From Armatimonadia bacterium (GTDB taxonomy: Bacteria > Armatimonadota > Zipacnadia > Zipacnadales > UBA11051), in the NCBI GenBank assembly GCA_039683575.1, contig JBDKRC010000273.1, positions 1 to 15,513 of the forward strand: a DNA stretch of 15,513 nt. Reading direction: 5' to 3'. This document shows positions 1 through 15,513 of the stretch, in pieces (position 1 is the stretch's first letter; each line of letters starts with the position of its first letter). Made by a program: the position numbers and the translations under genes. The notes under the pieces were generated by a model. The model was not told the DNA's origin. It saw nothing but the letters and a program-made list of their open reading frames with translations, and searched no databases.

Positions 1-2670
1 TATGGCGTGCCGCACTGCATGCGCAGCCTCGATGGCAACCCCCTGCGCCTTGGCGGCGCTACTTACATCCACGGCGTCGGCACCCACGCGCCCAGCAGCT
101 TCACCCTCGACACCTACGTCGGCGCGCGCTTCGCCCGCTTCGTCGCCGATGTCGGCGTCGATGACGAGGTGCCGCAGTCTGGATCGGTGCAGTTTCAGGT
201 GTGGCTGGATGGCAAGCAGGCCGCACAGAGCCCCGTCATGAAGAGCGGCGGCGGGGCGCACCGGATGGACGTGGACTGCACCGGGGCGGCGCAGATCGAG
301 CTGCGCGTGACCGACGGCGGCGATGGGATCAAGTGCGACCACGCGGATTGGGCCGGGGCGATGCTGTTCGCCGCGCCGCCGCCGGAGACGATTATCTTCG
401 ACAACTTCAACGGTGGCCTGAGCGACAAGTGGCACGCCACGGGCACGGCCTTCAGCCACATGTCCTGGCAAAACCCTGACCTGTTCCCCGACCAGGACCT
501 CCCGTGGCGCGGGGCCATCGTCGGCATCGAGGGCGCCGGCTTCGTCAACACCAGCAACCCGACGGACCAACTCAGGGCGACGGGCAAGGCGATCTCGCCG
601 GAGTTCACGATCAAGCTGCCCTACATCCACGTGAAGGTCGGCGGCTACCAGCTCCCGGAGGCGGCGGGCGTGCGCCTCGTGGTGGACGGTCAGCCCGTCC
701 GCACCGGCACCGGCATCGGCCGCAAAGACAACACTTTCAAGGGTCTCCACAAGCTCAAGCACGTGACGTGGGACGTGAGAGAGTTCACCGGCAAGACCGG
801 CCATATCGAGATCTACGACGACTCCGCCGAGAGCTTCGTGATGGTCGACTCCATCGTGTTCTCCAGCGACCCGGAGCCGCAGTATCTGGATATTCCCGAC
901 GTGGTGAAGATCGACCCGCAGGTGCAGGCGTGGTTGGAGGGGCTGGTCGCGCAGGAGCGGCGAAACGGTTCGGTTCCCGCGATCAGTTGCTGCATCGTGC
1001 GTGATGGGCAAGTCATGGCGATGGCAGTGCAGGGGGAAAGGAAGCTCGGTTCGGGAGTGAACGCGGAGTTGGGGGACGCTTTCCAGATGGGGTCCGTGTC
1101 TAAGACAGTCACGGCGACGGTCGCGGCGGCAATGATAGACGAGGGGGTAATGGACTGGACCACGACACTGGGCGATGTGTTCCCCGAACTGGCGCAAGCG
1201 AAGAACCCATTCAGGAATGTCAACGTGGTGCAACTGCTTTCACACACCAGCGGCATTCCCCAAAGCCACTTCCCCCCGCAATGGGCCGATATGTCTCTCA
1301 ATATACGATCCAGATACGCGCATTGGATCCAGGGGTACCTCAACCTGCCTCCACAGTTTCCGCCCGGCAACGCATACAAGTACTCGTGGGGACCGTTAGT
1401 TGTGGTCACGATGCTCTCGCGCCTGACGGGTCTGAGTTACGAGCAGATGATCCGGAAGTACCTCGTGGAGCCCCTCGGGCTGCAGAACACGACGGGTGTG
1501 ATGTCCGCCCGTGCCCAGGAAGACCCCGCAGTTGGCTTCGTGTGGCAGCACCGCGTTAGGGAAGGAAGGGTCACTGCGGGCGAACCCACAGGCTTCGGCC
1601 CTCCCGACGGCGATATGCATGGCCCCACCGGCGGCGTCAACATGTGCCCGCTCGATCAGGCACGGTTCATGATGGCTCACATGCCAGGCGTTCGGGCTCC
1701 ACGCCTGTTCACCAACGACACGATCGCAAAGCTCCACACGCCGGTCATGGACACGGGCGCCGGCGAAAGCTACTGCCTCGGGTGCTACACTCACCGCGAC
1801 CCCAAGGCGAAAGCTTTCGGGGCGGCCGTGCAGCATCATGGCTGGAACGGTGCAGCCAGCGCGCACACCTTCATCATCCCTGAAGCATCTTTCGGATACT
1901 CCGTTTGCTGTAACACCGGGGGAGCTCCGCCGGATGCCTATCCTGCGGCGCTCGATGGAGTGATTCTCGATAACCTGGGGCGGCTGATGGAGACGCCTTT
2001 TCGTCTGTCTATGGCGCGGATGACGCAATCGTTAGTTCTGCCGTCCGAATGCCCGGTCGGCTTGGCTCTCGCGGCGGAGGGCCGTGGGTTCTACAGCGAC
2101 TGGGCGAAGCACGAACTCCATTCCTTTGATACTGCGACCGGGGAGATCATATGGACGGCGCCGTTCCCGGATGAAGGGCCCGCCGATCTTGCCTTCGACG
2201 GCACGTCGCTTTGGGGCGGCGGCGAACGCACTCACACTCTCATACGGTTTGACCCGAAGAGCGGGGAGGTCCTCGGTCGCCTACCGACCGGCGACGTCTG
2301 CCCGAATGGTTTGGAGTATGCCGGTGGACGGATTTGGGTCGCGGACGTGCTTCGGGCAGAACTCACAGCCTTCTCCCCGCGCGACGGTTCCGTGGTTGGC
2401 CGCGTGACGCTGCCGCGGACGGGCCTCAACGGCCTCGCGTGGGACGGCCGCTACATGTGGGCCGGCCTAACCTTCGAGAAGGAGCTTGTTGCCCTTGACT
2501 TGCAGAGCGGCAAGATCGTATGCGAAGTCACTGTGCCCATCGCCGGCCGCGGTTGTCGCGGGCTGGAGTTCCGCGACGGCAAGTTCTGCCTTAATGAATG
2601 GGCGCCGCCCAGCCGCATGGACACCATCGAAGTCGGCCAGGAGACGTGGGACAAGCTGGGGCGAAAGTGA
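1..2670 (+). CDS. 5'-truncated multidomain serine hydrolase: NPCBM/NEW2 domain + levanase/GH32-associated beta-sandwich module + beta-lactamase class C/PBP-like (S12-type) domain + C-terminal 5-blade beta-propeller
   Basis: Frame 1 is open from base 1 (YGVPHCMRSLDGNPLRLGG...), so the true start is upstream. NPCBM signature at ~1-370 (GVGTHAPS, FVADVGVDD, GSVQFQVWLDG, LRVTDGGDGIKCDHADWA). Beta-sandwich at ~391-880 (ATGKAISPEFTI, PYIHVKVGG, VRLVVDG, WDVREFTGK). Hydrolase motifs: FQMGSVSK (SxxK 1093-1104), LLSHTSG, YKYSW (1375-1389), HHGWNG (1834-). Propeller repeats DLAFDGTSLW, GLEYAGGRIW, GLAWDGRYMW at ~2040-2640. Stop TGA ends at 2670. Confidence 0.88.
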   Translation, partial: YGVPHCMRSLDGNPLRLGGATYIHGVGTHAPSSFTLDTYVGARFARFVADVGVDDEVPQSGSVQFQVWLDGKQAAQSPVMKSGGGAHRMDVDCTGAAQIELRVTDGGDGIKCDHADWAGAMLFAAPPPETIIFDNFNGGLSDKWHATGTAFSHMSWQNPDLFPDQDLPWRGAIVGIEGAGFVNTSNPTDQLRATGKAISPEFTIKLPYIHVKVGGYQLPEAAGVRLVVDGQPVRTGTGIGRKDNTFKGLHKLKHVTWDVREFTGKTGHIEIYDDSAESFVMVDSIVFSSDPEPQYLDIPDVVKIDPQVQAWLEGLVAQERRNGSVPAISCCIVRDGQVMAMAVQGERKLGSGVNAELGDAFQMGSVSKTVTATVAAAMIDEGVMDWTTTLGDVFPELAQAKNPFRNVNVVQLLSHTSGIPQSHFPPQWADMSLNIRSRYAHWIQGYLNLPPQFPPGNAYKYSWGPLVVVTMLSRLTGLSYEQMIRKYLVEPLGLQNTTGVMSARAQEDPAVGFVWQHRVREGRVTAGEPTGFGPPDGDMHGPTGGVNMCPLDQARFMMAHMPGVRAPRLFTNDTIAKLHTPVMDTGAGESYCLGCYTHRDPKAKAFGAAVQHHGWNGAASAHTFIIPEASFGYSVCCNTGGAPPDAYPAALDGVILDNLGRLMETPFRLSMARMTQSLVLPSECPVGLALAAEGRGFYSDWAKHELHSFDTATGEIIWTAPFPDEGPADLAFDGTSLWGGGERTHTLIRFDPKSGEVLGRLPTGDVCPNGLEYAGGRIWVADVLRAELTAFSPRDGSVVGRVTLPRTGLNGLAWDGRYMWAGLTFEKELVALDLQSGKIVCEVTVPIAGRGCRGLEFRDGKFCLNEWAPPSRMDTIEVGQETWDKLGRK

Positions 2671-2833
2671 CAGCCATGGCCGAACGCGAGAAGATCGAAG
2701 CCGCGCTCAGCATTGACGGTTCGCGCGAATCCGCCGCCGTCAGCACTATCGGAGCGTCACCCTGCGCGACCACTGGGAGCAGGCTGCCGAACCCGCCGCC
2801 TCAGCCGCGCCAATCTTTCTCAAGGATCGAACT

Positions 2834-5800
2834 ATGGCTGTCCCGGCCGCCGTGCTCGCCGTGCTGCTGATCGTCTCGCTCGCTTGTGCACCCGCCCTCG
2901 CCGACGTCTTCTCCGACGCGGCTGCGGGCGATGTGGTGGCTGTGAAGGCGGCCATCGCGCAGAACCCCGGGCTGCTGAAGGCGACCGACCGGCAGTTCGG
3001 CGCCACGCTGTTGCACTTCGCTGCCTTCGCTGACAAGGGTGAAGTGGTGGCAATTCTGTTGGATGCGGGGTCGGATCCGGACAGCCGCAACCGGGATGGT
3101 CGCACGCCCCTGCACAATGCAGCGTTCGTCGGGGCTGACGATGTCGCCAAGCTGCTGCTAGCCAAAGCTGCCGATCCCTTCTGCCTGGACGGGCAGGAGC
3201 GGTCGCCCCGAGACTGGGCGGCAGCGAAAGCGCATCCCTCTACCGAAAGTCTGCTCGCCGACGCGGAGGCCGCAGTACTCATCGACACACGTGCCGGGCC
3301 GTGGAAGGCTGCGGCTGACGGCGATCTAGCTCTCGTCCTGGCGTACATCCGTCGCGGAGCCAACGTTGGGCTCGCCGGTCCGGATGGCTCCACTGCTCTC
3401 CACCATGCAGTCTCGGGGAACCACCTGGCAATCGTGGACGCACTTCTCGGCGCGGGTGTGGACGTCAATGCCCGCTCCAAGGCGGGGGCCACGGCTCTTC
3501 ATCTCGCGGCACAGCTGGCAGAGGTACAGCCGGTTGAGGTCTCCGACACCTCTGAAGTAGACAGTTTCTGCGCCTGGGGCCTCGCTCTCGGGAAGGATGC
3601 GGTCGTCTACTGTGGCGACTTCATCAGCAAAGAGTTGCTGTGGCTAAACAGAAATGACGGGACGGTCATTCAGCGGAAGCCCTTCGTAGACCAGTGTCAG
3701 GGCGATCTCGCATATGACGGACAGCATCTGTGGGCCCTCGGCACCCTGTCCCGCAGACTCTACAAGCTCGATCCGGACACTGGTGAGGTGCTCGCATCCT
3801 ACCCTCTGGACATCGCGCAGCCAGGTGGAATGGAATACCTGGATGGCGAGTTGTGGATCACGGACATCGAAGGGCCTGATCTCTGTGTCGTGTCGCCGGC
3901 CGACGGCCATCTCCTGCGTCGTGTTCCCGTCTCGGTCAGCCGCCTCTTTGGCCTGGCGTGGGATGGCCATTGCCTCTGGGCCGCCACGGCCTGGAATGAC
4001 AGGCTGATCGCGCTGGACCGGACCACCGGCAGGACGATCTGCGAACTGCGCGTGCCTCTGAGCGGTCAGGGCCTGCGCGGGATTCGGGGGCTTGAGTTCG
4101 ATGGCCGCCGTTTCTGGGCAGTTGAGTTTGGTGCACCCTCACCACGGATCTCCCTTCTCGAGATCAACGGCTCCGTACTGAGCGGCGTGCACGAAGCCGC
4201 ACGGACTCGTGGGGCGATGCCCCCAGTCAAGGAGCTGGCGGGTGGCTCGCGAGCGCTCGTCAGAAAGCTCATTCTCGCAGGTGCGGATCCTGCGCTGCTG
4301 GACGCACAGGGCCGGACGGCGCACCGTATCGCCGCCGACCGGGAGGATGTCGGAGCACTGATGGCTTTGGTTGACGCCGAAGCACAGTTCCTGGCGGCCA
4401 CGCTGCCGCGGCCAGCGCCGGACTTCACGCTGCCAGACCTCGACGGCAACAAAGTGTCACTGGCTTCGTTTCGGGGCAAGACTGTCGCTCTCTTCCTCTG
4501 GGGGCAGTCATACATAGACCCGAACAAGCTGTACGGATCGCTCGATGTGGCAGAGACGCTTGCCCAGTCTCCTGCAGCCAAGAAGGGAGATCTTGTGGTG
4601 CTCGTCTGCACCCGCGCGTCCCGTGACGAGGCGGCAAGACTGAGCCGAGAGCACGGCTTCACGTTCAAGGTACTTCTGGATCATACATCAGCCGTGCGCG
4701 TGAACTACCGCGCCATCGGTTGTGGTGTGATGCTGATCGATCCGGCAGGCCGGCTGGTGTGGCAGCGGCGGCTGGCGAACCAGTACACCGTCGCGCTGGC
4801 GCTTCGCCGCTTGGTCTCCGCCCCCTCGGCGCCACGCGATGCTGCGGCTCTGCCGACGGCCGCCGTAGCCGGTGGCAGTATCTGCGACTTTGAGCAGGGA
4901 CTGCGCGGCTGGACGCTGCGGGGAGATTGCTGGGGCGGCCAGCCCAGCGCCGACGCCAGCTATCCGGGACGCATGAAGGGCTACACGGGGAGGGCCTTCC
5001 TTTGCACCATGGGAGATCGTGCCCCCGCTGCCACGGGATTGGCCGTGTCGAGGCCCTTCACCATCACCTCCCCGTATATCCATTTCCTTGTTGGTGGCAC
5101 TGATGCCACCGACCACGCCTGCGTCGCGCTTGTCGTGGACGGGGTGGCGGCGCGTTCCGCAACCGGCGCGGATTCTGACGAGATGCTACCCGCTTGCTGG
5201 GACGTGAGGGATTTGGTGGGGCGCCAGGCTCATCTGGAGGTCATTGACGCGGGAGATGGCGATACCGACCTGTCATCCGGACATCCGGAGGGGCGGGACT
5301 ACCTGCTCTTGGATGACCTCCGTTTCTCGGAGAGCGCGGCCGTGCCTGCAGATTTTGCCCGCGGCTTCAATCCTGACGATCAGGTCATGGCTCGCCAAGT
5401 GGAACGACTTGCGCCGGACTACTACCAGCAGCTTCGCGCGGGTCGCGTCCATGCCGAATATGTGCCAGACCGCCGGGTGCACGTGCGCTCCGAGTACAAG
5501 GTCTCATGGCCGCAGGACGCACGTCATCTGAAGCTCACCCGGGCGTGTCCGCCCACCTTCGCCGGGCAGACGGTACACGCGGCCTCCTTTTCTCTCCGGC
5601 TGAACGGCCGCGAAATCCCAGGGCGGCGCATAAGGTCGATTCATCCGCTGGTTCCCGAGTCGTTCCTTTGTGAGGCTGATGTTCCGCCTGGAACGCCGCA
5701 TGAGGGCACTGCCATCTTCGAGGCCGACATGACGATGAACCGCCTCGCGCTCCTGCCGGGCCAGGGGCCGCGCGTCCAGGATCTCTCCCCGGAGGTCAGG

Positions 5801-6340
5801 CGCAAGCTTACCGAACCGCTGCACTCCTCGCTGGGAGAGCGTTATCGAAACTGGCTCCAGCAGGAGGGTCTGGTGCGCTGGCCCAATGAGGCGGACATGG
5901 CTTTCGTCTATCGCGCCCTGTGTTGGAACCAACGCGACTGCCGCTACACCTGGGACGTGTTCTGGGGCGGCCATCCCTCCACGGAAGCTGCACATTTCGG
6001 CTTTGTCCAGGGGAGAGCCGGCGACTGTCAGATGCTGGCGCAGACGCTCATCCATGCACTTCGGGCGAACGGAATACCGTCAACAGCCATGTGGGGCATC
6101 GGGCACGTCTGGGCTCTCATTTTCGTGCGGGATGTGGGCTGGGTGCGGGTGGATGACCCCGGCGCAGGACCGGGCTGGAACCACGGTCCTCTTTCGCCGG
6201 CGGATGGTCCTATCGGCAGGTCCGGGCCGCCGATCATGGACGTGCTGGATGGCGAAGACCCGCACGGGTGGAACACGATCGAGGGCGAGGTACCGAGCCA
6301 GATTGGAGTGCCCCTGGTTGCGATCACAGACCTGAAGTAG
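2834..6340 (+). CDS. Exported multidomain transglutaminase-like protein: signal peptide + ankyrin repeats + inserted beta-propeller + redoxin-like domain lacking CxxC + GH32-associated beta-sandwich + transglutaminase-like cysteine-protease domain
   Basis: 1168-aa ORF with AAGGA at 2822-2826 before the ATG. Hydrophobic N-terminus ending ALA|D. Ankyrin motifs GATLLHFAA, GRTPLHNAA, GSTALHHAV, GATALHLAA. Redoxin start PAPDFTLPDLDGNKVSLASFRGK at 4412. Transglutaminase core GDC (Cys 6026-6028), ALRANGIP, HVW (His 6104-6106), GWVRVD (Asp 6152-6154). Confidence 0.88.
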   Translation: MAVPAAVLAVLLIVSLACAPALADVFSDAAAGDVVAVKAAIAQNPGLLKATDRQFGATLLHFAAFADKGEVVAILLDAGSDPDSRNRDGRTPLHNAAFVGADDVAKLLLAKAADPFCLDGQERSPRDWAAAKAHPSTESLLADAEAAVLIDTRAGPWKAAADGDLALVLAYIRRGANVGLAGPDGSTALHHAVSGNHLAIVDALLGAGVDVNARSKAGATALHLAAQLAEVQPVEVSDTSEVDSFCAWGLALGKDAVVYCGDFISKELLWLNRNDGTVIQRKPFVDQCQGDLAYDGQHLWALGTLSRRLYKLDPDTGEVLASYPLDIAQPGGMEYLDGELWITDIEGPDLCVVSPADGHLLRRVPVSVSRLFGLAWDGHCLWAATAWNDRLIALDRTTGRTICELRVPLSGQGLRGIRGLEFDGRRFWAVEFGAPSPRISLLEINGSVLSGVHEAARTRGAMPPVKELAGGSRALVRKLILAGADPALLDAQGRTAHRIAADREDVGALMALVDAEAQFLAATLPRPAPDFTLPDLDGNKVSLASFRGKTVALFLWGQSYIDPNKLYGSLDVAETLAQSPAAKKGDLVVLVCTRASRDEAARLSREHGFTFKVLLDHTSAVRVNYRAIGCGVMLIDPAGRLVWQRRLANQYTVALALRRLVSAPSAPRDAAALPTAAVAGGSICDFEQGLRGWTLRGDCWGGQPSADASYPGRMKGYTGRAFLCTMGDRAPAATGLAVSRPFTITSPYIHFLVGGTDATDHACVALVVDGVAARSATGADSDEMLPACWDVRDLVGRQAHLEVIDAGDGDTDLSSGHPEGRDYLLLDDLRFSESAAVPADFARGFNPDDQVMARQVERLAPDYYQQLRAGRVHAEYVPDRRVHVRSEYKVSWPQDARHLKLTRACPPTFAGQTVHAASFSLRLNGREIPGRRIRSIHPLVPESFLCEADVPPGTPHEGTAIFEADMTMNRLALLPGQGPRVQDLSPEVRRKLTEPLHSSLGERYRNWLQQEGLVRWPNEADMAFVYRALCWNQRDCRYTWDVFWGGHPSTEAAHFGFVQGRAGDCQMLAQTLIHALRANGIPSTAMWGIGHVWALIFVRDVGWVRVDDPGAGPGWNHGPLSPADGPIGRSGPPIMDVLDGEDPHGWNTIEGEVPSQIGVPLVAITDLK
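2906..4384 (+). repeat. Two ~4-unit ankyrin-repeat cassettes within gene 2; the second is split by a propeller insertion
   Basis: Cassette A runs DVFSDAAAGD...SLLADAEA. Cassette B runs GPWKAAADGD...GATALHLAAQL, [insert ~3520-4240], GSRALVRKLILAGADP...MALVDAEA. Both end in LxDAEA. Confidence 0.8.
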
Positions 6341-6584
6341 ATGATCTTCAGCCGGCCCTGAAAGACCCAGATGCCAAGACTCTTGGTGCTGGTGCTACTC
6401 GCAAATGGGTGACCCATACCGGGTCAGTCTCCGTGGCCATAGCGCGAGCCTGTGCCCTGGCTTGTAGCAATCAGCTGGCTTAATTGGGAAGAGTCGCCCT
6501 GACAGACACAGTTGCGCCGCTGTCGGCGTACGAGTTGGCCTCTGGCGGCGCCGGAGCGCTCGGGCGCAATCTATGAGGTTCGAT

Positions 6585-9500
6585 ATGCTCAGCTTCCGGG
6601 GATACCGCACCATTCGTCTTTCGCAGTGTATGCTGGTGAGTTGTCTCATATTGCTCTGCGGGGCTGTTCCTGCTGTGGCGGGGCCGCAGGCCAGCGCCTC
6701 TTCGTGGCCGATGCGTCAGCGCGACATGCAGAACACTGGCCGTGCGGACTACTCGGTTCCGCCGTCACGGCTAAATCGTCACTTCTTCGACGCCGTTCGT
6801 TGGCAAAGCCCCGTTCCCGGCTCTCCGAACGAGGGCAACCTCAGCAGCACCCAGATGGTCTTCTGCGATCAGGTCGGACGGCAGCGGCTCGATATCGTCG
6901 CCGGGACCTATCACGCGCCGAAAGGGATCCAGGGCATGGACCGTCACAGCGGTCGCATACTCTGGCGTGGCGCGACCGCAGGGGGCGAAGCAATCGCGCT
7001 CTGGTCTGCCGCCTTCTCGCCTGACGGCGGTACGATCTATGTAGCAAATGATGCCACTGACCATCCGTTGATGGCCTTCGGCAGTGAGAGTGGCCCAAGC
7101 CTGTACTGGGACAACGGCATGGATCCCAGCGACGGCGAGGCGGCGATGGGGTCTCCCAAGGTTGCTCCCGATGGTCGCGTCTTTGCACACAGTTGGAACG
7201 CCCGTCCGCTCTCCTGGGCAGATGACGGCCACGCACTCGCCCGTTGCTGGGCCGCAAACGAACGGTCGCAGTGCCTGCAGGGCGGACCAGCCCTGAGCAT
7301 GCTCGGCAACAACTTGCACGTGATCAGCGGGGGGGACGGCGGCGTGGCATGTTTCGATGGGACCAATGGAGAGTGTCTGTGGCGCGCGCGGCTGCCCGGG
7401 AAGATCGCGAATGCGAGCCCCACCATAGACCCTGTTACCGGCAACATCTACGTTCCTGCTGAGGGCAACGGGAGCGTGTATGTCATCGGCCTAACAGGCA
7501 ACGGCGCGGCACTGTGGGATCAGAGCGCGCGGATGGCATACGAGTACATCGAGCAGGTCAATGCACCCGGCTATGTGGCTGCTTCAGGCTGTCTCAGTGA
7601 CGATGGTAGCACCTTCTACTTCCAGTCGGCCAGCAAGCAGGGCGACGGCAAGCTATATGCAGTCGACACCAAGACTGGAGCAATCCGGTGGGCCTATGAC
7701 ACCCACAGCAAATCTGATCGGGGCCGCTACAGCGCATCGCCGATCGTCACTCGCAATGGCGTGATCGTTGTCGGCAACAACGACGGCGGTATGTACTTTG
7801 CGATCAAAGACTTCGGCCGAGTGCCAGCGCTCGTGGCGACGCTGGCTGTTGGTCAGGGAGGGACGGCCGCCGCCAGCGCCTCCCTCGCGCCCGATGGGTC
7901 ACTCTATCTGCCCTTGCGCGTGACTTGGACGGCAGCCGGCGGCGGACAGCCGCCGAGTGGCCGGGTAGAGAACCTCTTCTGCTGCATCGACCTGACCGAC
8001 AACGTGCGCGAGGCGCTGAAATCGCCGCCGGAGGCGGAACTGCGCGCGCCCGAGATGACCCAGAGTTCGAACGCGAAGCGGCCGGTCATGGCACCACCGG
8101 CCCACCAGTCATCGGTGGCGCTGAATAACGCCGTCAGCATTCGCTGGGACCCCGTCACCGACGCAAAGCTGTTTGACTGCTATGCTGTGTACCGGGCCAG
8201 TAAGCCGATCATGGACGTGACTGGCATGGTCCCGTTGGCGGTACTGCAATCGATGGGAACCGGTGCATATGTGGATGGTAGTGCAGTGAACGGCAGCCAC
8301 TACTACTACGCTGTCACTATTCGCTGCAAAGGCGGGGGTGAGATGACCGCGGTACGCAGCCTCATGCCGCGGACGCCTCGCGATGAGACTGACCTTCAGG
8401 TGGTATCGATCGCGCGTACCCCCTTCTATCCGCGCTATGCTCCGATATACAAGCGCGCCACCGTAGTTGAGCCGTCGGGGTTTGGGCCCTATTTCTTCAG
8501 CATCGTCACCGGGTACGAACAAGGCCAGAACGGTGAGACGCAGCATGCACCTGCTATCGGCGAGACGGTGACCTATGTCGCCACCATCAGAAACCGCGGC
8601 ACGAATCCCGTCAACAACATCCATGCCACGTGGAGTCTCGGCGGCAATGTGGTCCAGCAGGTCTTGCTTCAGACCACACTGAAATCAGGCGACACTGTTA
8701 CGGCCTCGTATCGTTCAGTCTGGGACGGCGATTCCCATCAGATCGCCTTCACCATCGAAGACCGGGACATCCGTCCGCGGAACAACGTATTGACAATCGA
8801 TATCCGGGCCGTGGGATTCCTCACGTACATTGATCAGTCGATGATGGAGGACTTCCGGGAGCGCACCTGGTTGAAACAGGTGGACGCGGCCGCCACGGAC
8901 GACATGATCGACTGGCTGAACCACCAGATGGCGAGGTTCAACCAACTCTTTGCGCAGGCCGGGTGCGGCAAGCGTGTTCACTACGACGTGTTGGAAGTGC
9001 TGCCGGATGGGTACCCCGACCCGGCGGTCCAACGGCTGAATTTCGCCTGCTTTCCCTTTCGCTTCCGTGCCGGCGAGGATGATTCTCGCAACAAGAGCGC
9101 CTACTACCACCCGGCCGATGATGCCGACATCGGGCTACTACATGAGATGGCCCATCAGCTGGGGATGGTGGACACCTACCAGTTTGACGTGGGCCCAGAC
9201 AACAACCAGGTGTGCGGACAGGTGGTCAAGCCGTATCTGGCCGCGCCTGATTTGATGGCCTGTGGTCCGGTGATATCTCCCCTTCACACCTTCGCGATGA
9301 ACAAGTGGCAGGTTCACGGACTGTACGGCCAGTATTTGTACAACCTGCCGGCGACCATTGCCATGCGCCTCATGGGACGCGACGGTCGGCCACTCGCGGC
9401 AGCTCATGTGAAGGTCTATCAGTACTGTGAGCGGCCCGGGATCGGTCGCGCTTTGACGAACCAGATCAAGGCACAGGGGGAGACAGACAGTGAGGGGCGG

Positions 9501-10307
9501 TATGTCCTGCCGAACGTGAAGATTGACCCTGCACTAGTGCCACCTTTGCCGACTGGCGACACTTTGCGCGACAACCCCTTTGGCTATGTCGATTGCGTCG
9601 GCACCAACGGCACTTTGCTGCTGTCCGTCGAAAGCGGGGGCGAGATTGACTACTGCTGGCTCGATCTCGGCGAGTGTGTCGCGGCATATGGCCGTGGGGA
9701 CAGGAGCGCAACAACCTTCACACGCCCCCTTGATCTCGGCGGCCCCGTCCAACCGCTGCCGCCACATGATCTGACTGAGTCCAGCGCTGGCGAGTGGCGA
9801 ATCACGGCGGCTGACAAGACACAACCGACTGAGACCTTTGCGTCCGACGATGGCGACCGCGCGGTTGCGGGTAACTCATCTGTCAGGTTCGAAAACAGGG
9901 GCGGAGGTAATCCCATTCTTCGCTACCCAAACACGGCCCGCGCGCAATGGGATCTGACACGCGCAATATCTCTGCAGATCACAGCATATGCCGAGTTCGC
10001 CAACGGCGCTTTTGACGTCAATGGGATGCCGGTCGTGCGACTGTATGATCAGAGCGGCAGCTACGCTGAGTACTGCCCCTATGCCAATGGCACACGCAGC
10101 AACCTTATCAACAAAGCCATTGGGAGATGGTGCACCCTGAGCATCCCATTAGCGGCGGCATCTACGGCCAGGGAAGGTTGGCGCAGGGTGGATTCTGGTA
10201 CGGTGGACCTGTCCAGAGTAAGCAAGCTCGAGATCATATTGCGGCGTGATCCCTACCGGGCAGGATCGTACTCGTTGTGGTTGGACGACGTACATTTTTC
10301 GTTCTGA
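6585..10307 (+). CDS. Exported multidomain zinc metallopeptidase: signal peptide + PQQ/BamB-like beta-propeller + FN3-like + CARDB Ig-like + metzincin-type HExxHxxGxxD domain + carboxypeptidase-regulatory-like domain + C-terminal CBM11/CIA30-like jelly roll
   Basis: The ORF track gives 6573..10307. The in-frame ATG at 6585 has GAGG (6575-6578) 6 nt upstream and is preferred, but the start is uncertain. Signal-like stretch LVSCLILLCGAVPAVA. PQQ-type motifs WPMRQRDMQNTG, KLYAVDTKTGAIRW, SASPIVTRNGVIVVG. FN3-like AVSIRWDPV...YAVYR...YYYAVT (~8090-8380). CARDB DLQVVSI...GETVTYVATIRNRG...NN (~8390-8810). HEMAHQLGMVD at 9141-9173 followed by a PDLM Met-turn candidate. C-terminus VDLSRVSKLEI...LWLDDVHF. 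Confidence 0.85.
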   Translation: MLSFRGYRTIRLSQCMLVSCLILLCGAVPAVAGPQASASSWPMRQRDMQNTGRADYSVPPSRLNRHFFDAVRWQSPVPGSPNEGNLSSTQMVFCDQVGRQRLDIVAGTYHAPKGIQGMDRHSGRILWRGATAGGEAIALWSAAFSPDGGTIYVANDATDHPLMAFGSESGPSLYWDNGMDPSDGEAAMGSPKVAPDGRVFAHSWNARPLSWADDGHALARCWAANERSQCLQGGPALSMLGNNLHVISGGDGGVACFDGTNGECLWRARLPGKIANASPTIDPVTGNIYVPAEGNGSVYVIGLTGNGAALWDQSARMAYEYIEQVNAPGYVAASGCLSDDGSTFYFQSASKQGDGKLYAVDTKTGAIRWAYDTHSKSDRGRYSASPIVTRNGVIVVGNNDGGMYFAIKDFGRVPALVATLAVGQGGTAAASASLAPDGSLYLPLRVTWTAAGGGQPPSGRVENLFCCIDLTDNVREALKSPPEAELRAPEMTQSSNAKRPVMAPPAHQSSVALNNAVSIRWDPVTDAKLFDCYAVYRASKPIMDVTGMVPLAVLQSMGTGAYVDGSAVNGSHYYYAVTIRCKGGGEMTAVRSLMPRTPRDETDLQVVSIARTPFYPRYAPIYKRATVVEPSGFGPYFFSIVTGYEQGQNGETQHAPAIGETVTYVATIRNRGTNPVNNIHATWSLGGNVVQQVLLQTTLKSGDTVTASYRSVWDGDSHQIAFTIEDRDIRPRNNVLTIDIRAVGFLTYIDQSMMEDFRERTWLKQVDAAATDDMIDWLNHQMARFNQLFAQAGCGKRVHYDVLEVLPDGYPDPAVQRLNFACFPFRFRAGEDDSRNKSAYYHPADDADIGLLHEMAHQLGMVDTYQFDVGPDNNQVCGQVVKPYLAAPDLMACGPVISPLHTFAMNKWQVHGLYGQYLYNLPATIAMRLMGRDGRPLAAAHVKVYQYCERPGIGRALTNQIKAQGETDSEGRYVLPNVKIDPALVPPLPTGDTLRDNPFGYVDCVGTNGTLLLSVESGGEIDYCWLDLGECVAAYGRGDRSATTFTRPLDLGGPVQPLPPHDLTESSAGEWRITAADKTQPTETFASDDGDRAVAGNSSVRFENRGGGNPILRYPNTARAQWDLTRAISLQITAYAEFANGAFDVNGMPVVRLYDQSGSYAEYCPYANGTRSNLINKAIGRWCTLSIPLAAASTAREGWRRVDSGTVDLSRVSKLEIILRRDPYRAGSYSLWLDDVHFSF

Positions 10308-10467: not shown

Positions 10468-10472
10468 AGGAG
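10468..10472 (+). promoter_or_regulatory. Shine-Dalgarno sequence of gene 4
   Basis: AGGAG, 7 nt before ATG 10480, which begins a signal-peptide-like sequence. Confidence 0.75.
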
Positions 10473-10479
10473 ACCATCC

Positions 10480-12972
10480 ATGCGAGTATATGTGTCTGCG
10501 TTTCTCGTTCTGGCCTTATTCGTCGCTGCCAAGGATTCCCACGTGGCTGCTCAGGGCACTTCTGCTCCCTCGATCGCTTGGGCGAATCAGCCGCGCGTCG
10601 CTGATTTTCTGGAGGGGGTCGAGCTGATCTCTGGCGGACGCGAGGCTGGGAAGTGCGTCTGGCTGCGTGTGGGCGGGAAGAGAGTTTTTGACGCCACAGG
10701 CTGGCGTGGCCGCGGGGTGAACATGGCGACCTTCAAAGACGCGGCGCTGATCTCATCGGACACCTTCAACACCAGCGAAAGCAAGGAGCGCACGGAGGCC
10801 TTCGCTCGGGCCGTCGAAACACTGCCCGCTGGAACGACCGTCATCCTCGCTGTCTGTGAGGATGGCACCGGTTGCTTCTCGGAGCGTGGCCAAAAGGCCA
10901 TCGAGAGCATCGGTGGCAGGCTGGGCCTTTTCGGACAGCAGTCTGGCTCATCGTACTTTTGCATCGGCGTCAAGGGGCTGTCTCCCGGGATTGCGGTTGA
11001 GCGCGCTGGACGGGAGCGGCTTGAGTATCCCTCGCCGTTTGCCTTCCAGAAGACAGTTCTGCAAGGGGGGCGACCATCTCCCCTGGTTGCTGCCACCGTT
11101 AGGGCTCTCGATGCCGGCGGGAAGCCGGTGGTGGGTGCGGCCATCTACGCTTGGTGTCCGGGGCGGGGTTTGTCAGTTCCCTGGCCCGATGCTCCAGCGT
11201 GCTTCACGGATAGCCAGGGCATTGGCAAGTTCTGCGCCTTGGCGGGCGATTGGACGCTCTTGGGCGTCTGTCGCCTGCCTGACGGTGACAGGGGTTGGGC
11301 AGTCTGCCGCTCGCATGTCGTCCTCGATGATACTGCCTCGCAGGCGTTGCTCAAGGCGAATGCCACCCTCCAGTGCCGCTTCGAGAACCTCCCCGACGGC
11401 GCCCGCGTCCGCGGGGGCGATTTGTACGCAATCCCGACTAGTGAGGCTCCGCACTGGATGCCATCCTCAGTTGGGGGCGGGCGATTTCGGACCCTTGAGA
11501 CGAACACCGAGGAGCCCCTTGACCTGTGGTGGGATGAGGGAGCTCGTGATGCACGCCGCAGCTACTTTCTCAAGGCGAGCATAGCGGCGGACGAGGCAAC
11601 GGCAGTATGGGACGCTGCCGCGGATGTGAATGCGCGCCTGCGGGTTCCGCCCTTCAATCCGGTTGACCCGAGCGTGCGGGGATGGGTGACCATCGACAAC
11701 TTGGAGTTCTGCTACCCGCAGCGACCGATTTACCACTACTTCGGGCCGGAAGGCAAGGAGGTGATCACCACACCCGCACAGGCTTCGGTACATTGGACTG
11801 TTGGCTGGGACAATGCCAACAGCAATGGGCATTCCGAGGAGGCTGAAGAGCATCTCCTCCTGCGTGCGGGTGAGGAGGTCAGACTGGAAGTAAGTCAGCA
11901 GGTATCAGCGCATCCAGTGCTCGATCGTGTCAGCGACCGTGAGTTCCAGTACTGGCTCAATGCCACCGACGGGAACGGACACCGCCTTCACGAAGTGCAT
12001 CGGGGACACGAGGCAGTCGCGGGAAAGCTCGAACTGCTTGACGAGAAAGAAGCCCTCGTGCAATCGTTGCCAGTAAGGCTCACGCACGAGGTGTGGCAGT
12101 TGCCTGCGGGGCAGCGCTTCCCGAGCAAAGGCACCTATCGGCTGACTCTTGACTTTGGTCCGTTCGGCAGTGTCCTCCAAGAAGGGGCAATACCCGAGGA
12201 AAGCGCGCTGCGGGGCAGACAAGAACGCGAACATATGACGCTGCTATACCCCGCTGTTCCTGACCGCGAAAGCCAGAGGATTCTGGACGAGCTGGCTACG
12301 ACATGTGCCGATGACCTGGAACGGCTCGTCTGTGACGGCTACAACTGGTACGGCATCACACCCCCGCGAGGCATCCAGTTCCACGCGGCCCTATGCCCGC
12401 CGACGGCCGGTGGTTCAGCGGGATCGTACATCGTGTTCCACCTGAACTTCCTTGAGCGCTGGGACACGCGCCGGTGGGACCCTTCGCGCGTCGCTGCTCA
12501 CGAACTGGGACACAGTATGCACTGCATAGAACCGCTGCACGTGTTTCTCGAGGAGAGCGACAAGGATAGTGGCGGCACCTACAATGAGTCTCAGGCCACG
12601 TTCATGGGATGCATGGGTCTACTATCCAAGTTTGGCCCGGTGACGCGCGACGCGAGTTTTCTGGCGGAATCGCAACTACTCCTTGATTGGTTCAGGGGAA
12701 CTTCGGCCCCCGGGTGGCAGCAGTCGAGACGGCTTTTCTACTTGAGTTGGCTGCTTCAGCGGGAGCTCGGAGACGACTTCTGCAGGCGGTACTTCCGGTT
12801 GGCACACGCAGACCCGCCTGACGTTCGGAACCGTATCCGCTCCCAATCCTGGAGCGCGACGGAGAAGATCTGCGCCCTGTATTCCTCGGCGGCGGGGCAA
12901 GATCTGTCGGAACGGTTTCGAGAGATGGGTTTCGAAATACGCCCGGGAACTGGAGTGCTGCCGAACCAGTAG
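10480..12972 (+). CDS. Exported ILEI/PANDER (GG-type lectin) domain protein with C-terminal gluzincin zinc peptidase (830 aa)
   Basis: RBS CCAGGAG just upstream of ATG 10480, which is in frame with the 10246..12972 ORF. Signal-like MRVYVSAFLVLALFVAA. ILEI-like motifs GRGVNM, DTFNT, LPAGTTVILAVCEDG, AIESIGG, SYFCIGVKG...AVE (~10630-11001). Carboxypeptidase-regulatory-like VRALDAGGKPVVGAAI...TDSQG. HELGH at 12499-12513, then 24 residues, then E (NES, 12586-12588). Confidence 0.85.
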   Translation: MRVYVSAFLVLALFVAAKDSHVAAQGTSAPSIAWANQPRVADFLEGVELISGGREAGKCVWLRVGGKRVFDATGWRGRGVNMATFKDAALISSDTFNTSESKERTEAFARAVETLPAGTTVILAVCEDGTGCFSERGQKAIESIGGRLGLFGQQSGSSYFCIGVKGLSPGIAVERAGRERLEYPSPFAFQKTVLQGGRPSPLVAATVRALDAGGKPVVGAAIYAWCPGRGLSVPWPDAPACFTDSQGIGKFCALAGDWTLLGVCRLPDGDRGWAVCRSHVVLDDTASQALLKANATLQCRFENLPDGARVRGGDLYAIPTSEAPHWMPSSVGGGRFRTLETNTEEPLDLWWDEGARDARRSYFLKASIAADEATAVWDAAADVNARLRVPPFNPVDPSVRGWVTIDNLEFCYPQRPIYHYFGPEGKEVITTPAQASVHWTVGWDNANSNGHSEEAEEHLLLRAGEEVRLEVSQQVSAHPVLDRVSDREFQYWLNATDGNGHRLHEVHRGHEAVAGKLELLDEKEALVQSLPVRLTHEVWQLPAGQRFPSKGTYRLTLDFGPFGSVLQEGAIPEESALRGRQEREHMTLLYPAVPDRESQRILDELATTCADDLERLVCDGYNWYGITPPRGIQFHAALCPPTAGGSAGSYIVFHLNFLERWDTRRWDPSRVAAHELGHSMHCIEPLHVFLEESDKDSGGTYNESQATFMGCMGLLSKFGPVTRDASFLAESQLLLDWFRGTSAPGWQQSRRLFYLSWLLQRELGDDFCRRYFRLAHADPPDVRNRIRSQSWSATEKICALYSSAAGQDLSERFREMGFEIRPGTGVLPNQ

Positions 12973-13204
12973 TCTTTACAGATACTTCCAGAGCACTCGT
13001 GCGCCCGGTTGTTGGCGACCCCACGCCCATAGTGCATAGTCCTGGTGCAGGCTTCCACCCCGCCCCCGCTTCGCCGACATAGCTTCACGGCGGCCGAAGA
13101 CCGCGCACTTGCTCAACTCTCAGAGACCGCTACAGCGGGCGTTTGTCGAGGTCAGCGCATTGCTTATTGCAGCAAGAATGCACACGATTCCACCTGCCGC
13201 CTTG

Positions 13205-13233
13205 TTGACAGCGGCCACCCCTTCCGATAGATT
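13205..13233 (+). promoter_or_regulatory. Sigma70-type promoter for gene 5
   Basis: TTGACA (13205-13210), 17-nt spacer, TAGATT (13228-13233). The -35 is perfect, the spacing optimal, and the -10 keeps the three most conserved positions. It ends 72 nt before the ATG at 13306. Confidence 0.7.
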
Positions 13234-13292
13234 TCTTCATCGGCGAAGCAGACCTTCTGGCTAGTCGTGCCGGGCCTTTGCTCGCCGTGGGA

Positions 13293-13298
13293 GAGGAG
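13293..13298 (+). promoter_or_regulatory. Shine-Dalgarno sequence of gene 5
   Basis: GAGGAG, 7 nt before ATG 13306. Confidence 0.75.
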
Positions 13299-13305
13299 TT
13301 TTTGG

Positions 13306-15513
13306 ATGACGTTCCGGGCCGTGATCGTTGTCTGCCTCATGCCAAGTCTGCTCTTTGCGGGACAAGAGCCGGCTGCCACGCTGGTGGCCGGCACCGGCGT
13401 GACCGGCTATGACGGGGACGGGCGAGCGGCCGTCGCGTCCGCGCTCAATCACCCCCACGGGCTTGCGGTTGGCCCCCGGGGCCAACTGTTCATCTCGGAA
13501 TGGGATGGAGGTCGGATTCGTAGGGTCGCCCCTGACGGCGTGATCGGAACCGTGGCGGGAACCGGGTGGCAGGGCTCTGCCGAAAACGAGGGACTGGCTG
13601 TTGAGGAACCAGTGTGCAACCCGTCCGGTCTTGCTGTGGAGCCGGATGGCGCAGTGCTCGTGGCCGACTACGGCAACAATCGTCTCTGCCGAATCTCAAG
13701 TGATGGCTGGCTCACCACCATCTGCGGGAACGGACGCCCCGGCTATGGCGGTGACGGTGCCCTCGCCACAGGTGCGCAGTTGAACGGTCCCGCCGCAGTT
13801 GCCGTGGACCGTGCCGGAACTGTGTATGTGGCTGACTCAAAGAACCACAGGATTCGTCGGATTGACGCCGACGGCATCATCAGCACGCTCGCAGGAACCG
13901 GCGAAGCGGCCAGCGGTGGGGACGGCGGGCCCGCGCGAGAGGCGCAGATCAATGTGCCCGAAGGACTTGCGCTGGGGCCCGATGGCAGCCTATATGTCAG
14001 TGAGTGGCAGGGGCAGCGGGTGCGGAGGGTCGCCCCGGATGGCGGCATCACCACGGTAATGGGGACGGGCGTGCCGGGGCTGTCTGGGGACGGAGGACCG
14101 GCCGCCAGTGCTCAAGTCGCGGGTCCACGCGGTCTTGCCGTTGACGCTGGGGGCAATGTCTTCATCGCCGACCATTGGAACAACCGCGTCCGGAAGGTCA
14201 GCGCGAACGGCATCGCCAGTACGGTAGTGGGGGAGGGGGATACGAAGCTGGATTGGCCGAGTGGGGTGGCCGTGGATCTCTCCGGCGGTTTGCTGGTCGC
14301 CGACACGTGGCACAGTCGCGTTCTGAGGCTGCAGCGGGTAGCCGCACCCACCGTACCGCCGGCCAATGGTGCCCCAGTAGCGGCGCTGCCAGGGGACACC
14401 GGAACCGTTGTGCAGCCAACGGTTCTCATTTCTGCAGCGCATGACTACCTGGGAGGGCTTGAGGGGCAGATCCACCAAGGCTTGCTGCGCAGACGTGGAG
14501 TGCGTTCCACTCTGGCCCTGGAGGGCCTGGAGGAGGTGTCCCTGGATCCCTATCAGGTGGTCGTATTGTCCGCTCCCGGCCAATACTGGCTGCCATATAC
14601 GGAGGGCGAGCGGCTTCACCTTCGGCAGTATGTTCAGGCGGGTGGTGGCCTGCTCCTGCTGGGTGATGTGTCGAAGTGGGAGCGCGACGTGGCTGACGGC
14701 GCATTCGGTCGAAGGAATCCCTTCACTTTGAACTCGGTTGCCTCTGACTTCGGCTTCCAGTTCACCACGACAATTGGGCCGATCGGCCCCACCTTAGGCC
14801 CGCCGTGGACGAAGCTGCTACTCAGGGCACGAGGTGTGGCTGCTGGCTGCATCTATGCAACTACGTCATTGGAGGTGGCTGCCTACGATGCGTCAGGCAA
14901 TCTGGCGGTAGCCGGAGCCTGCGTTGGTCACGGACGAGTGCTTGCGGTGGATATGTCCGTTGCGAGACTCAGCGAACTCGCAGCGAGTAGCGAGCCAACC
15001 GGCTCCGGCTTTCGCCAAGCCTTGCGATGGTTAGCCGGGGATGTGCCGTCCAACGAGGCGTTTATGGCTCCGGAGCGTATCCTGCCGGGGCGCACATACC
15101 GGCGCGGACGCCTCGAGTTTCTCGGCTGCCGGCTCATTTCCGAAGAAGTCACGCGGCGGAATGTAGAGCTGTTCGAGAGAGCCTACCAACTGCTGCGAGA
15201 CTCGCTGAAGCTCGATCTGCGGGACTCACTGGGTGTGCTGCGGGTCATCTTCGTCCAGACCGACGGCGGATTCACGGGTGGAGATGAGATGCACGTGGGG
15301 ATCAACGAGACTCCTGAACGCTTCCTCGCATATGTGTCTCATGAATTGGGCCACCAATGGGCCGCTCCCGGTGGCATGCCGGGCGGCTTTGATGAGGGGT
15401 GGGCCAACTACTGCTCCTTCGTTGCCGCCGCCAAGACTGAGTTCGCGGAGCAGGCAAAGGCTTCATGGGCGGCCGACCTAAGGGCACTTCACGAGGCGGA
15501 TCCGACCATGAGC
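13306..15513 (+). CDS. 3'-truncated NHL-repeat protein with class I glutamine-amidotransferase-like (GIFT/DUF4350-type) domain and gluzincin (clan MA) zinc peptidase domain
   Basis: Not in the ORF track because there is no stop in the window. By manual translation: RBS GAGGAG at 13293-13298, ATG 13306, 736 open codons to the window end. Starts MTFRAVIVVCLMPSLLFAG. Six NHL units, e.g. LNGPAAVAVDRAGTVYVADSKNHRIRRI and GPRGLAVDAGGNVFIADHWNNRVRKV. Then LDPYQVVVLSAP...YTEGERLHLRQYVQAGGGLLLLGD...LNSVASDFGFQF...GHGRVLAV...ALRWLAG. HELGH at 15340-15354 and EGWANY from 15394. Confidence 0.87.
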   Translation, partial: MTFRAVIVVCLMPSLLFAGQEPAATLVAGTGVTGYDGDGRAAVASALNHPHGLAVGPRGQLFISEWDGGRIRRVAPDGVIGTVAGTGWQGSAENEGLAVEEPVCNPSGLAVEPDGAVLVADYGNNRLCRISSDGWLTTICGNGRPGYGGDGALATGAQLNGPAAVAVDRAGTVYVADSKNHRIRRIDADGIISTLAGTGEAASGGDGGPAREAQINVPEGLALGPDGSLYVSEWQGQRVRRVAPDGGITTVMGTGVPGLSGDGGPAASAQVAGPRGLAVDAGGNVFIADHWNNRVRKVSANGIASTVVGEGDTKLDWPSGVAVDLSGGLLVADTWHSRVLRLQRVAAPTVPPANGAPVAALPGDTGTVVQPTVLISAAHDYLGGLEGQIHQGLLRRRGVRSTLALEGLEEVSLDPYQVVVLSAPGQYWLPYTEGERLHLRQYVQAGGGLLLLGDVSKWERDVADGAFGRRNPFTLNSVASDFGFQFTTTIGPIGPTLGPPWTKLLLRARGVAAGCIYATTSLEVAAYDASGNLAVAGACVGHGRVLAVDMSVARLSELAASSEPTGSGFRQALRWLAGDVPSNEAFMAPERILPGRTYRRGRLEFLGCRLISEEVTRRNVELFERAYQLLRDSLKLDLRDSLGVLRVIFVQTDGGFTGGDEMHVGINETPERFLAYVSHELGHQWAAPGGMPGGFDEGWANYCSFVAAAKTEFAEQAKASWAADLRALHEADPTMS
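13378..14335 (+). repeat. Six tandem NHL repeats (teneurin-like GxG..GDGG.A..A.L..P.G.A.D..G..Y.AD..N.R.R units)
   Basis: Manual translation shows six units of about 56 aa (the last shorter), each with P-x-G-L/V-A-V and A-D/S-E...R-I/V-R. Confidence 0.85.

Follow-up and report, generated by a model that had tools for sequence, protein, structure and literature searches.

Five adjacent genes for putatively exported multidomain hydrolases on one contig of an Armatimonadota genome

Gene content of the contig and its host genome

The stretch of DNA considered here, referred to as the window, is a complete contig of 15,513 nt (JBDKRC010000273.1, or C273) from the Armatimonadia bacterium assembly GCA_039683575.1. 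It is filled by five large open reading frames (ORFs), g1 to g5, all of which are co-oriented on the plus strand (Table 1). Each of these genes would encode a Sec-exported multidomain hydrolase, in which one catalytic domain is combined with non-catalytic binding modules. The catalytic set would consist of an S12-type serine hydrolase (g1), a transglutaminase-core Cys-His-Asp enzyme (g2), one metzincin (g3) and two related gluzincins (g4 and g5), whilst the binding set appears to draw upon NPCBM, a glycoside hydrolase (GH)-associated beta-sandwich, ILEI/GG and GIFT-like modules, propellers and ankyrin repeats. The account of this array that seems reasonably likely is that of a lineage-specific cluster of independently acting exported hydrolases, enriched in peptidases and built by duplication and shuffling, which degrade protein and glycoconjugate polymers.

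Table 1. Genes, modules and motifs of the window; nucleotide positions are those of the window and residue (aa) positions those of each predicted protein.
Feature	Nucleotides	Strand	Residues	Remarks
g1	1-2670	+		5' end open; an estimated 53 aa or so short at the N-terminus
g1 NPCBM			4-122	
g1 GH-associated beta-sandwich			~128-300	
g1 S12/beta-lactamase-fold domain			314-646	
g1 propeller-like repeats			677-879	
g2 5' cassette	2762-2883	+		72 nt upstream plus first 50 coding nt (predicted signal peptide)
g2	2834-6340	+		begins with predicted signal peptide
g2 ankyrin repeats			34-226	
g2 propeller-like repeats			241-445	
g2 thioredoxin-like domain	4412-4747		527-638	without CxxC
g2 GH-associated sandwich			~674-810	
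g2 transglutaminase-core module			835-1168	334 aa
g3	6573-10307	+		1,244 aa; begins with predicted signal peptide
g3 PQQ-type beta-propeller			~32-497	
g3 FN3-like			519-599	
g3 CARDB			656-725	
g3 catalytic domain, then beta domain			740-1010	predicted metzincin fold
g3 zinc motif HEMAHQLGMVD	9141-9173	+	857-867	H857, E858, H861, G864, D867
g3 C-terminal beta-sandwich			~1061-1244	
g4	10480-12972	+		830 aa; corrected start; begins with predicted signal peptide
g4 ILEI/GG-type module			~78-166	followed by ~400 aa, unassigned and mostly beta
g4 C-terminal gluzincin-fold domain			~585-830	predicted fold
g4 zinc motif HELGH + Glu			674-678, 703	H674, E675, H678, E703
g5	13306-15513	+		3' end open, an estimated 90 aa or so short; corrected start; begins with predicted signal peptide
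g5 NHL propeller, six-bladed type			~45-365	numbered from GTG 13267
g5 GIFT/DUF4350-like			~380-600	followed by the start of a gluzincin domain
g5 zinc motif HELGH + Glu			692-696, 710	H692, E693, H696, E710; HELGHQW...DEGWANY

The gene calls required two corrections. The start of g4 is most likely the ATG at 10480, which has AGGAG upstream, rather than that at 10246, and the start of g5 is most likely the ATG at 13306; measured to these starts the intergenic gaps are 163, 232, 172 and 333 nt. The minus-strand ORFs (200-411 aa) were rejected as chance ORFs, with no Pfam match in any of the five tested. There are no Rfam families or tRNAs in the window, and a repeat scan of it revealed nothing notable and no sign of a mobile element. 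Neither a secretion-system gene, an immunity gene nor a toxin-delivery domain lies within it, and neither the five proteins nor the five minus-strand ORFs match any Pfam or NCBIfam family of glycoside hydrolases, transporters or regulators. The four visible N-termini (g2 to g5) each contain a hydrophobic stretch of 12 aa, for which the Kyte-Doolittle mean is 2.77 or higher, and small-residue sites behind it, such that the signal-peptide calls represent a heuristic based on hydrophobicity and small residues. These Sec-type signal peptides are the sole targeting signals seen. An earlier, sequence-only reading of this DNA had described five consecutive co-oriented genes, signal-peptide-like N-termini in all four visible cases and the absence of any glycoside hydrolase, transporter or regulator from the window, and these three descriptions hold, with the proviso that two of the starts have moved.

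The first gene is incomplete. A paralogue of g1 is found on another contig of the same genome (C132:629-2439), where it is 84% identical over aa 1-319 of g1; past aa 319 the similarity passes through two further reading frames, at 61% and then 33% identity, which gives the look of a broken gene or else of an error in assembly. The paralogue opens with the same type of upstream region and signal peptide as found in g2, and comparison with it shows g1 to be lacking, on this estimate, about 53 N-terminal residues including the signal peptide. The contig probably breaks inside g1 because of the repeat that is shared with this paralogue.

The source is a metagenome bin of 6.23 Mb in 352 contigs, with a GC content of 63.5% and a completeness of 96%. 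The contig has a GC content of 63.1% (against 63.5 +/- 1.0 for the bin) and a tetranucleotide correlation of r = 0.972, which places it at the 22nd percentile among 223 contigs of the bin. Its composition is therefore ordinary and the contig belongs to the genome, which led to mis-binning or a foreign island being rejected. The public runs that contain the sequence are labelled 'wastewater' and 'anaerobic digester'. An independent anaerobic-digester study also yielded assembled contigs that are at least 99% identical to the window: in run X2 this applies to all 20 of the contigs compared, with depth in 19 of 30 bins. Among the pieces listed, those of X2 fall in g2 to g5 and those of X3 in g1, g2 and g4. 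Two of the digester pieces span gene ends and none joins two genes, the contigs from four DNA runs having given pieces of 151-493 nt only.

Catalytic domains of the five proteins

The best understood of the catalytic domains is that of g1, which matches the Pfam Beta-lactamase family (PF00144) with 127.4 bits against a cut-off of 27 (E 8.9e-37) and so belongs to it. It is preceded by a clear NPCBM (Pfam E 7.5e-38) and followed by propeller-like repeats that score above the cut-off of PQQ_2 (28.9-34.6 bits). The best solved relatives are the S12 peptidase Pab87 (2qmi; E 6.8e-16) and the alkaline D-peptidase 4y7p, and on alignment with these two structures S365-V-S-K368, Y461 and H612-H-G correspond to the SxxK, YxN and HxG motifs, respectively. 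The YxN motif reads Y-S-W in g1, the Asn having been replaced by Trp. As PF00144 also holds esterases and beta-lactamases, the peptidase activity of g1 is putative.

In g2 the C-terminal module is a member of Transglut_core (PF01841), scoring 26.8 bits with the whole protein and 29.5 bits with the C-terminal part, where the cut-off is 23. Within the matched stretch C1065 (in GDCQ), H1091 (in GHVWA) and D1107/1108 were located by eye, in their usual sequence contexts, and 30 of the 30 nearest Atlas clusters of this module carry Transglut_core. A PDB sequence search with the g2 C-terminus returned nothing for the catalytic part. The core may cleave, cross-link or deamidate, since the fold includes non-peptidase enzymes. 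The propeller-like module of g2 reaches 25.1 bits, under the Pfam cut-off of 27.6, and is 37% identical to the C-terminus of g1. The thioredoxin-like domain resembles AhpC/TSA and Redoxin, with FLWGQSY at the usual place of the CxxC, and is probably a structural rather than a catalytic module.

The situation with g3 is quite different, as its catalytic region matches no Pfam peptidase family (E <=5) and no NCBIfam family (E <=0.01), and both a PDB sequence search with g3 and a search of all PDB sequences with a profile of its core gave noise only. The region (aa 740-1010) nevertheless has 209 relatives at E <=1e-3 among 2,980 candidates, making a family of at least 209 proteins. The best 120 of these relatives are all at least 50% identical with at least 97% coverage, and none has a Pfam domain in this region. 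The family core is 50-62% identical across Planctomycetota, Verrucomicrobiota, Armatimonadota and other phyla. Its database records are mostly mislabelled as 'BamB' or 'PQQ-binding', or are nameless, and there is no cultured or characterised member among them; the literature searched, whose scope left subscription journals and MEROPS outside, held no description of the family.

What, then, is this domain? All 48 of the family members that were aligned keep the motif residues H, E, H, Q, L, G, D and Y as well as two Met residues, which lie +28 and +42 from the motif Asp and are candidates for a Met-turn beneath the zinc site. An AlphaFold2 (AF2) model built with the family alignment as input has a predicted local distance difference test (pLDDT) score of 83.6, and in a VIA structure search with this model the top 25 rows are all metzincins (Z 8.9-5.2, mostly with 123-151 residues aligned). 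These are headed by 6o38_A (Z 8.9, root-mean-square deviation 3.8, 132 residues aligned) and include adamalysin II (7.8), ADAM8 (7.6), ulilysin (7.2), OgpA (6.0) and snapalysin (5.4), although Z values of 7 to 9 are rated as 'middling' by the tool's own note. Foldseek against the PDB gave weak rows only (best E 6.4e-3), all of them M12B enzymes (ADAM, ADAMTS and snake-venom metalloproteinases). The HExxHxxGxxD motif is also carried by snapalysin. In g3 the motif Asp is likely the third zinc ligand, HExxHxxGxxD being given as the Asp-zincin motif in PMC3890501. The structure 6O38 is that of the Acinetobacter O-glycoprotease CpaA, a MEROPS M72 metzincin, according to PMC7542363. The case for the g3 core being a metzincin depends on fold ranking, motif and conserved Met taken together. 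The catalytic domain is predicted to have the metzincin fold, and as a possible new family of metzincins the g3 group is a well-defined candidate.

Around this core the g3 family is variable. Some members carry C-terminal dockerin or FlgD_ig-type domains. There is also a short form of about 975 aa, found at 12 of 39 loci (L027, L031, L032, L044-L046, L048, L052, L054, L056, L057 and L059), in which a copy of the C-terminal sandwich replaces the N-terminal propeller, and on this basis the two modules appear to be interchangeable.

The last two genes are concerned with a much rarer domain. Their front modules are readily recognised, as ILEI in g4 (Pfam E 1.8e-10) and NHL in g5 (E 4.5e-36), and behind these neither the g4 and g5 parts (E <=5) nor eight of their relatives (E <=1) match the Pfam peptidase families M1, M4, M60 (PF13402) or MA_2. 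PDB sequence searches with g4 and g5 returned nothing for the catalytic parts, and a g5-type profile against the PDB found M1 enzymes at the motif with an E of about 1 only. When 1.84 billion representatives were searched exhaustively by HMMER with the last 581 aa of g4, only five other proteins emerged, the closest cluster including an 855-aa protein from a Candidatus Anammoximicrobium metagenome-assembled genome (MAG), and HExGH with its downstream Glu is invariant in all six g4-type proteins. Relatives of g5 (aa 380-749) appear as weak matches in 9 of 401 Planctomycetota genomes. Three distant homologues from Planctomycetota (ORFs of 481, 655 and 831 aa) can be aligned with both the GIFT-like and the catalytic part of g5 and retain both HExxH and the Glu of NE/DE-G/P-x-A-x-Y; judged by these three, about 90 aa would be missing from the C-terminus of g5. 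Other searches produced little: word-based homologue searches matched g4 and g5 aa 380-749 only to themselves, none of 595 pattern matches in a metagenome contig scan for g4 relatives was confirmed, the 401 Planctomycetota genomes matched g4 only in its ILEI part (in 3 genomes), and five g3-family genomes held no g4 relative.

The catalytic domains of the g4 and g5 types are homologous to one another (hhalign 96.3%, E 1.9e-9, 204 columns), with their motifs in register. The AF2 model of g4 has a pLDDT of 62.5, which is of low confidence. With this model the top 29 VIA rows consist of gluzincins and of TFIID, which we take to represent an M1-like fold, with leukotriene A4 (LTA4) hydrolase at Z 11.2, thermolysin at 10.3, pseudolysin at 9.8 and M61 at 8.2; the M60 enzymes (Z 7.1-8.0) come under the M1 and M4 enzymes at 10-11. 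Foldseek against the PDB gave no match for the g4 model at E <=1e-3. For g5 the Atlas structure rows are to DUF4350 and to nameless clusters of about 480 aa at a template modelling (TM) score of 0.63-0.67, whilst its nearest named Atlas clusters are M60-like (0.78-0.83), which serves as a lead only. The domain that is common to g4 and g5 is accordingly described as a rare putative gluzincin, unclassified in Pfam, NCBIfam and PDB sequence space.

Taken together, the general picture of the sequence-only reading, that of exported modular peptidases of several catalytic classes, is supported by the domains, the motifs and the signal-peptide heuristic, the peptidase-type catalytic domains being of four mechanistic classes. 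Its SxxK serine motif in g1 is confirmed by the Beta-lactamase profile and the alignment to S12 enzymes, and its metzincin motif in g3 by the invariance across the family and the fold of the AF2 model. Its transglutaminase-like assignment of g2 stands as far as a family match above cut-off is concerned, with the triad residues having been picked by eye only; likewise, its gluzincin assignment of g4 and g5 is backed by conserved motifs and by the g4 model fold, albeit with the low confidence of that model. Several proteins do have modules that bind glycans elsewhere or that accompany glycoside hydrolases (NPCBM, a GH116-inserted sandwich, ILEI and GIFT-like). In particular, the NPCBM of g1 and the ILEI/GG lectin of g4 were both recovered by Pfam, which found nothing to correspond to the proposed CBM11-like module of g3. 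With regard to the beta-propellers claimed for four of the proteins, those of g3 (PQQ_2) and g5 (NHL) are solid and that of g1 is above cut-off, but that of g2 falls below. Modules that the reading did not include are the ankyrin and thioredoxin-like parts of g2, the FN3-like and CARDB parts of g3 and the GIFT/DUF4350-like part of g5.

Conservation, shared modules and runs of large genes

One of the main questions concerning the array is whether the genes travel together. The relatives searched were 40 genomes, of which 3 share the genus of the bin, 12 others its family and a further 25 its order, and none of them yielded a full-length homologue of g1, g2, g3, g4 or g5. Nothing matched g4 in any of the 40 genomes and no match covered aa 740-1010 of g3, for which one relative (G029) has aa 32-497 at 55% identity, with a few weak propeller matches elsewhere and the others lying mainly in the FN3-like stretch. 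Among the matches listed, g2 is represented by its ankyrin or sandwich parts only, g5 by its NHL part only, and g1 by single domains (NPCBM, two of the beta-lactamase fold at 27-30% identity and one sandwich). In another relative (G010) there are NHL-repeat matches on several contigs, each with a single in-frame TAG (seven among the matches listed), for which adjacent genes, pseudogenes or an unusual decoding of TAG could be responsible.

A scan of species representatives returned 40 loci, 39 of them with a g3 relative, and most of the g3-family loci with enough sequence, which belong to other phyla, are 41-48% identical over nearly all 1,244 aa. Within flanks of up to 10 kb on each side of these 39 loci there is no g1, g2 or g4 homologue, the only other match being to NHL repeats adjacent to the g3-family gene at L061. 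When 402 flanking ORFs, taken from 38 of the loci, were clustered, only the g3 family itself was present in more than three loci, and the flanks of the three g5-type relatives held no partner homologues. The five genes are no conserved locus. The sequence-only reading had seen in them a protease counterpart of a polysaccharide-utilization locus (PUL), and as a defined system this is not supported, since the homologues show no conserved clustering in either the 40 relatives or the 39 g3-relative loci, an outcome that the reading itself had named as refuting it.

A rather different type of relationship is found at the level of the modules. The domain that had been called a GH32-associated sandwich, present twice, is indeed one and the same homologous domain in g1 and g2 (40% identical), but its company is GH116 and not GH32: in 5 of 5 relatives' proteins tested it is inside GH116 enzymes. 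It has no Pfam match and no PDB sequence or profile match. In the GH116 glycosidases (L066-L070) it is placed between the N-terminal and the catalytic regions. The 5' cassette of g2 is 89.6% identical in nucleotides (blastn) to C132:674-795, ahead of the g1 paralogue, and these are the only two copies in the genome. In the relative G029 (G029:C14, L002, ORF 901-4389, minus strand) an FGE-sulfatase domain is fused to a PQQ propeller, which is 55% identical to that of g3, and to an NPCBM. Finally, a crude ORF of the same genome (C314:21653-24457, minus strand, L075) has ankyrin repeats, NPCBM and Peptidase_M64, with MS_channel at its start, and may be two genes read together. A probable origin of the array by local duplication and domain shuffling is drawn from all of these, namely the modules shared by g1 and g2, the recurrence of the g2 cassette, the paralogy of g4 and g5, the G029 fusion, the C314 ORF, the GH116 sandwich and the swap of sandwich for propeller in the g3 family.

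Runs of large genes are also a feature of the genome as a whole. With a crude ORF caller 594 of 4,421 genes are of at least 700 aa, and runs of at least four such genes occur 8 times against 0.97 expected, a number reached in none of 3,000 shuffles; a run of five large genes somewhere in the genome was seen in 334 of the 3,000. For instance, a run on contig C70 contains GH123, GH42 and CBM9 proteins, and another (C275:213-13792, L074) has four co-oriented large genes for S8 subtilase, disaggregatase-related, PD40 propeller and C39-like proteins. All four of the C275 proteins end in Big_5 and FlgD_ig domains, and this suggests that they have a C-terminal module in common for sorting or anchoring. 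As large-gene runs are so common in this genome, a run of five large genes for exported enzymes is not special here. It does stand out by its content of HExxH motifs.

Interpretation and comparison with known systems

According to the favoured reading, that of separately acting exported hydrolases, the cluster would have arisen through local duplication and domain shuffling as one among several large secreted-enzyme runs of the genome. Each of the five genes would probably have its own promoter, and the enzymes would most likely act separately outside the cytoplasm, and perhaps beyond the periplasm, where they would break down the proteinaceous and glycoconjugate polymers of sludge, for example necromass, extracellular matrix or the debris of cell envelopes. 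The appended modules would hold each enzyme on its substrate. Glycoproteins, S-layers and peptidoglycan are, we infer, the candidate substrates of the five enzymes. A number of points limit this reading or weigh against it. Promoter-like sites (3 against 2.7 expected) and terminator-like sites (5 against 8.1 expected) are at chance level, the structural case for g4 depends upon a low-confidence model, and g2 has a further 243 weaker matches in relatives beyond those listed. Because the contig ends within g1 and g5, transporter, regulator or secretion genes could sit just outside. Moreover, of the 589 other crude ORFs that reach 700 aa, 21 carry HExxH, so that the chance of three or more among five is about 4e-4, and this enrichment together with the co-orientation is compatible with a functional theme or with co-transcription.

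The last of these points leads to the strongest of the rivals, although it seems rather unlikely: a young, species-specific and co-regulated proteolytic locus, in which glycan-binding modules aim several catalytic classes at one complex substrate such as a glycoprotein, S-layer or envelope. Five co-oriented genes with nothing between them would suit such a locus, as would the HExxH enrichment, and the catalytic domains of g1 and g2, which differ, do come with the same two modules (sandwich and propeller-like), the sandwich being that of the GH116 enzymes of relatives. The best structural match of g3 also points in this direction, as 6o38 (Z 8.9) is, according to PMC7542363, the O-glycoprotease CpaA, but CpaA lies within about 1 Z unit of the adamalysins. 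Against the locus, neither the set nor any pair of its genes is conserved anywhere searched, the intergenic gaps are long (163-333 nt) and there is no transporter, regulator or secretion gene in the window, whilst the enrichment partly reflects a single duplication, since two of the three zincins (g4 and g5) are paralogues. A related and bolder idea, which is likewise to be regarded as unlikely, is that of a young 'warhead-swapping' locus that diversifies in situ, where targeting modules and the promoter-signal cassette would have been recombined onto four catalytic classes, including two unclassified peptidase families, all directed at one glycoconjugate substrate.

The remaining explanations are more distant. 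That the enzymes are antagonistic or predatory weapons, directed against the walls or surface layers of neighbouring microbes, is quite improbable, even though g1 is nearest to S12 enzymes of D-stereospecific and DD-peptidase type, which act on peptidoglycan-like D-amino-acid peptides. In a preprint on giant genes of predatory bacteria (10.1101/2023.11.21.568195), peptidase, glycosyl hydrolase and ILEI domains are listed for proteins that are proposed to process the cell surfaces of prey. In the window, however, there is no immunity, secretion-system or toxin-delivery element and the targeting signals are ordinary Sec-type signal peptides, and the data do not separate attack from scavenging. 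It is very improbable that the five proteins stay in the periplasm or envelope of the cell that makes them and there remodel the wall or the surface proteins of that cell, in which case g1 would be a DD-peptidase, g2 a transglutaminase that forms cross-links and the zincins maturases. A Sec signal alone implies only the crossing of the inner membrane, and the S12 (PF00144) and transglutaminase (PF01841) folds include wall-active and cross-linking enzymes, but housekeeping envelope enzymes are normally conserved in relatives, as these five are not, and the dockerin or FlgD_ig-type ends of some g3-family members are typical of surface or extracellular proteins. Finally, one might suspect that the contig is chimeric or mis-binned, with genes from more than one organism, given a fragmented metagenome bin (352 contigs) and a nearest g4 relative that bears a Planctomycetota MAG name. 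This is extremely improbable in view of the typical composition, the occurrence of paralogues of g1 and g2 modules on contigs elsewhere in the bin, and the independent digester contigs, which are at least 99% identical across g2 to g5 (X2) and g1, g2 and g4 (X3), with two that cross gene ends.

What does the array mean if it is indeed a collection of separate hydrolases? As a system it has little weight, as it would be a species-specific patchwork, and it acts rather as a reminder that there are uncultured degraders in which big runs of genes for secreted enzymes are nothing unusual. The 5' cassette and the modules that are shared do, though, provide a concrete case of enzyme assembly that appears to have proceeded by recombination. 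The lasting value lies in two zincin families, the widespread one of g3 and the rare one of g4 and g5, for which Pfam, NCBIfam and the PDB sequences offer no classification. Both are found in biomass recyclers of digesters and sediments and are fused to lectin-type modules, which makes them candidates for new glycoprotein-directed proteases. Were the warhead-swapping idea true, one glycoconjugate would be attacked by several chemistries at once.

These conclusions can be set against enzymes that are already known. For g1 the closest comparison is with the D-stereospecific and DD-peptidases of the S12 type, including Pab87 of Pyrococcus abyssi (2QMI), 4Y7P and the R61 DD-peptidase, with which it has in common the PF00144 fold, the SxxK, the Tyr and the HxG. 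Pab87 also has an extra C-terminal domain behind its catalytic domain, as is the case with g1. The differences are that g1 relates to the D-stereospecific S12 peptidases with an E of only 1e-16 to 1e-6, that the Asn of YxN has become Trp, and that the NPCBM, sandwich and propeller-like modules are appended in g1. Similarly, g2 resembles the PF01841 superfamily in its core profile, its Atlas neighbours and the contexts of Cys, His and Asp, and differs in having no solved sequence relative and in being fused behind ankyrin, propeller-like, thioredoxin-like and sandwich modules.

With the zincins the comparison is more one of structure. The predicted fold of g3 and its downstream Met are as in CpaA (M72), the adamalysins and ADAMs (M12B), ulilysin and snapalysin, and in CpaA, according to PMC7542363, beta-sandwich modules are likewise arranged around the catalytic domain. 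In contrast to these known metzincins, g3 has no sequence link to peptidase families or PDB chains, with an identity of 8-17% in structural alignment, and its architecture of PQQ propeller, FN3, CARDB, catalytic domain, beta domain and sandwich is unique. With the M1 enzymes and LTA4 hydrolase, thermolysin (M4) and the M60-like enzymes, g4 and g5 have in common an HExxH with a Glu, which in g4 and g5 lies 13-24 residues further on, and the M60-like glycopeptidases (BT4244 at Z 7.1 and ZmpA at 8.0, as well as ZmpB and IMPa) have lectin-type modules joined to them in the same manner as g4 and g5, which differ from M1, M4 and M60 in matching no family profile and in the tiny size of their family.

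The array as a whole invites comparison with the PULs of Bacteroidota. In contrast to these there is no SusC/SusD-type transporter pair, sensor or regulator within the window, whose ends fall in g1 and g5, and no gene order or set is conserved in the other genomes searched. The likeness is that of adjacent, co-oriented genes for exported degradative enzymes equipped with carbohydrate-binding-type modules, and the distinguishing feature is that these modules are joined in this array to catalytic domains of peptidase type rather than to glycoside hydrolases.

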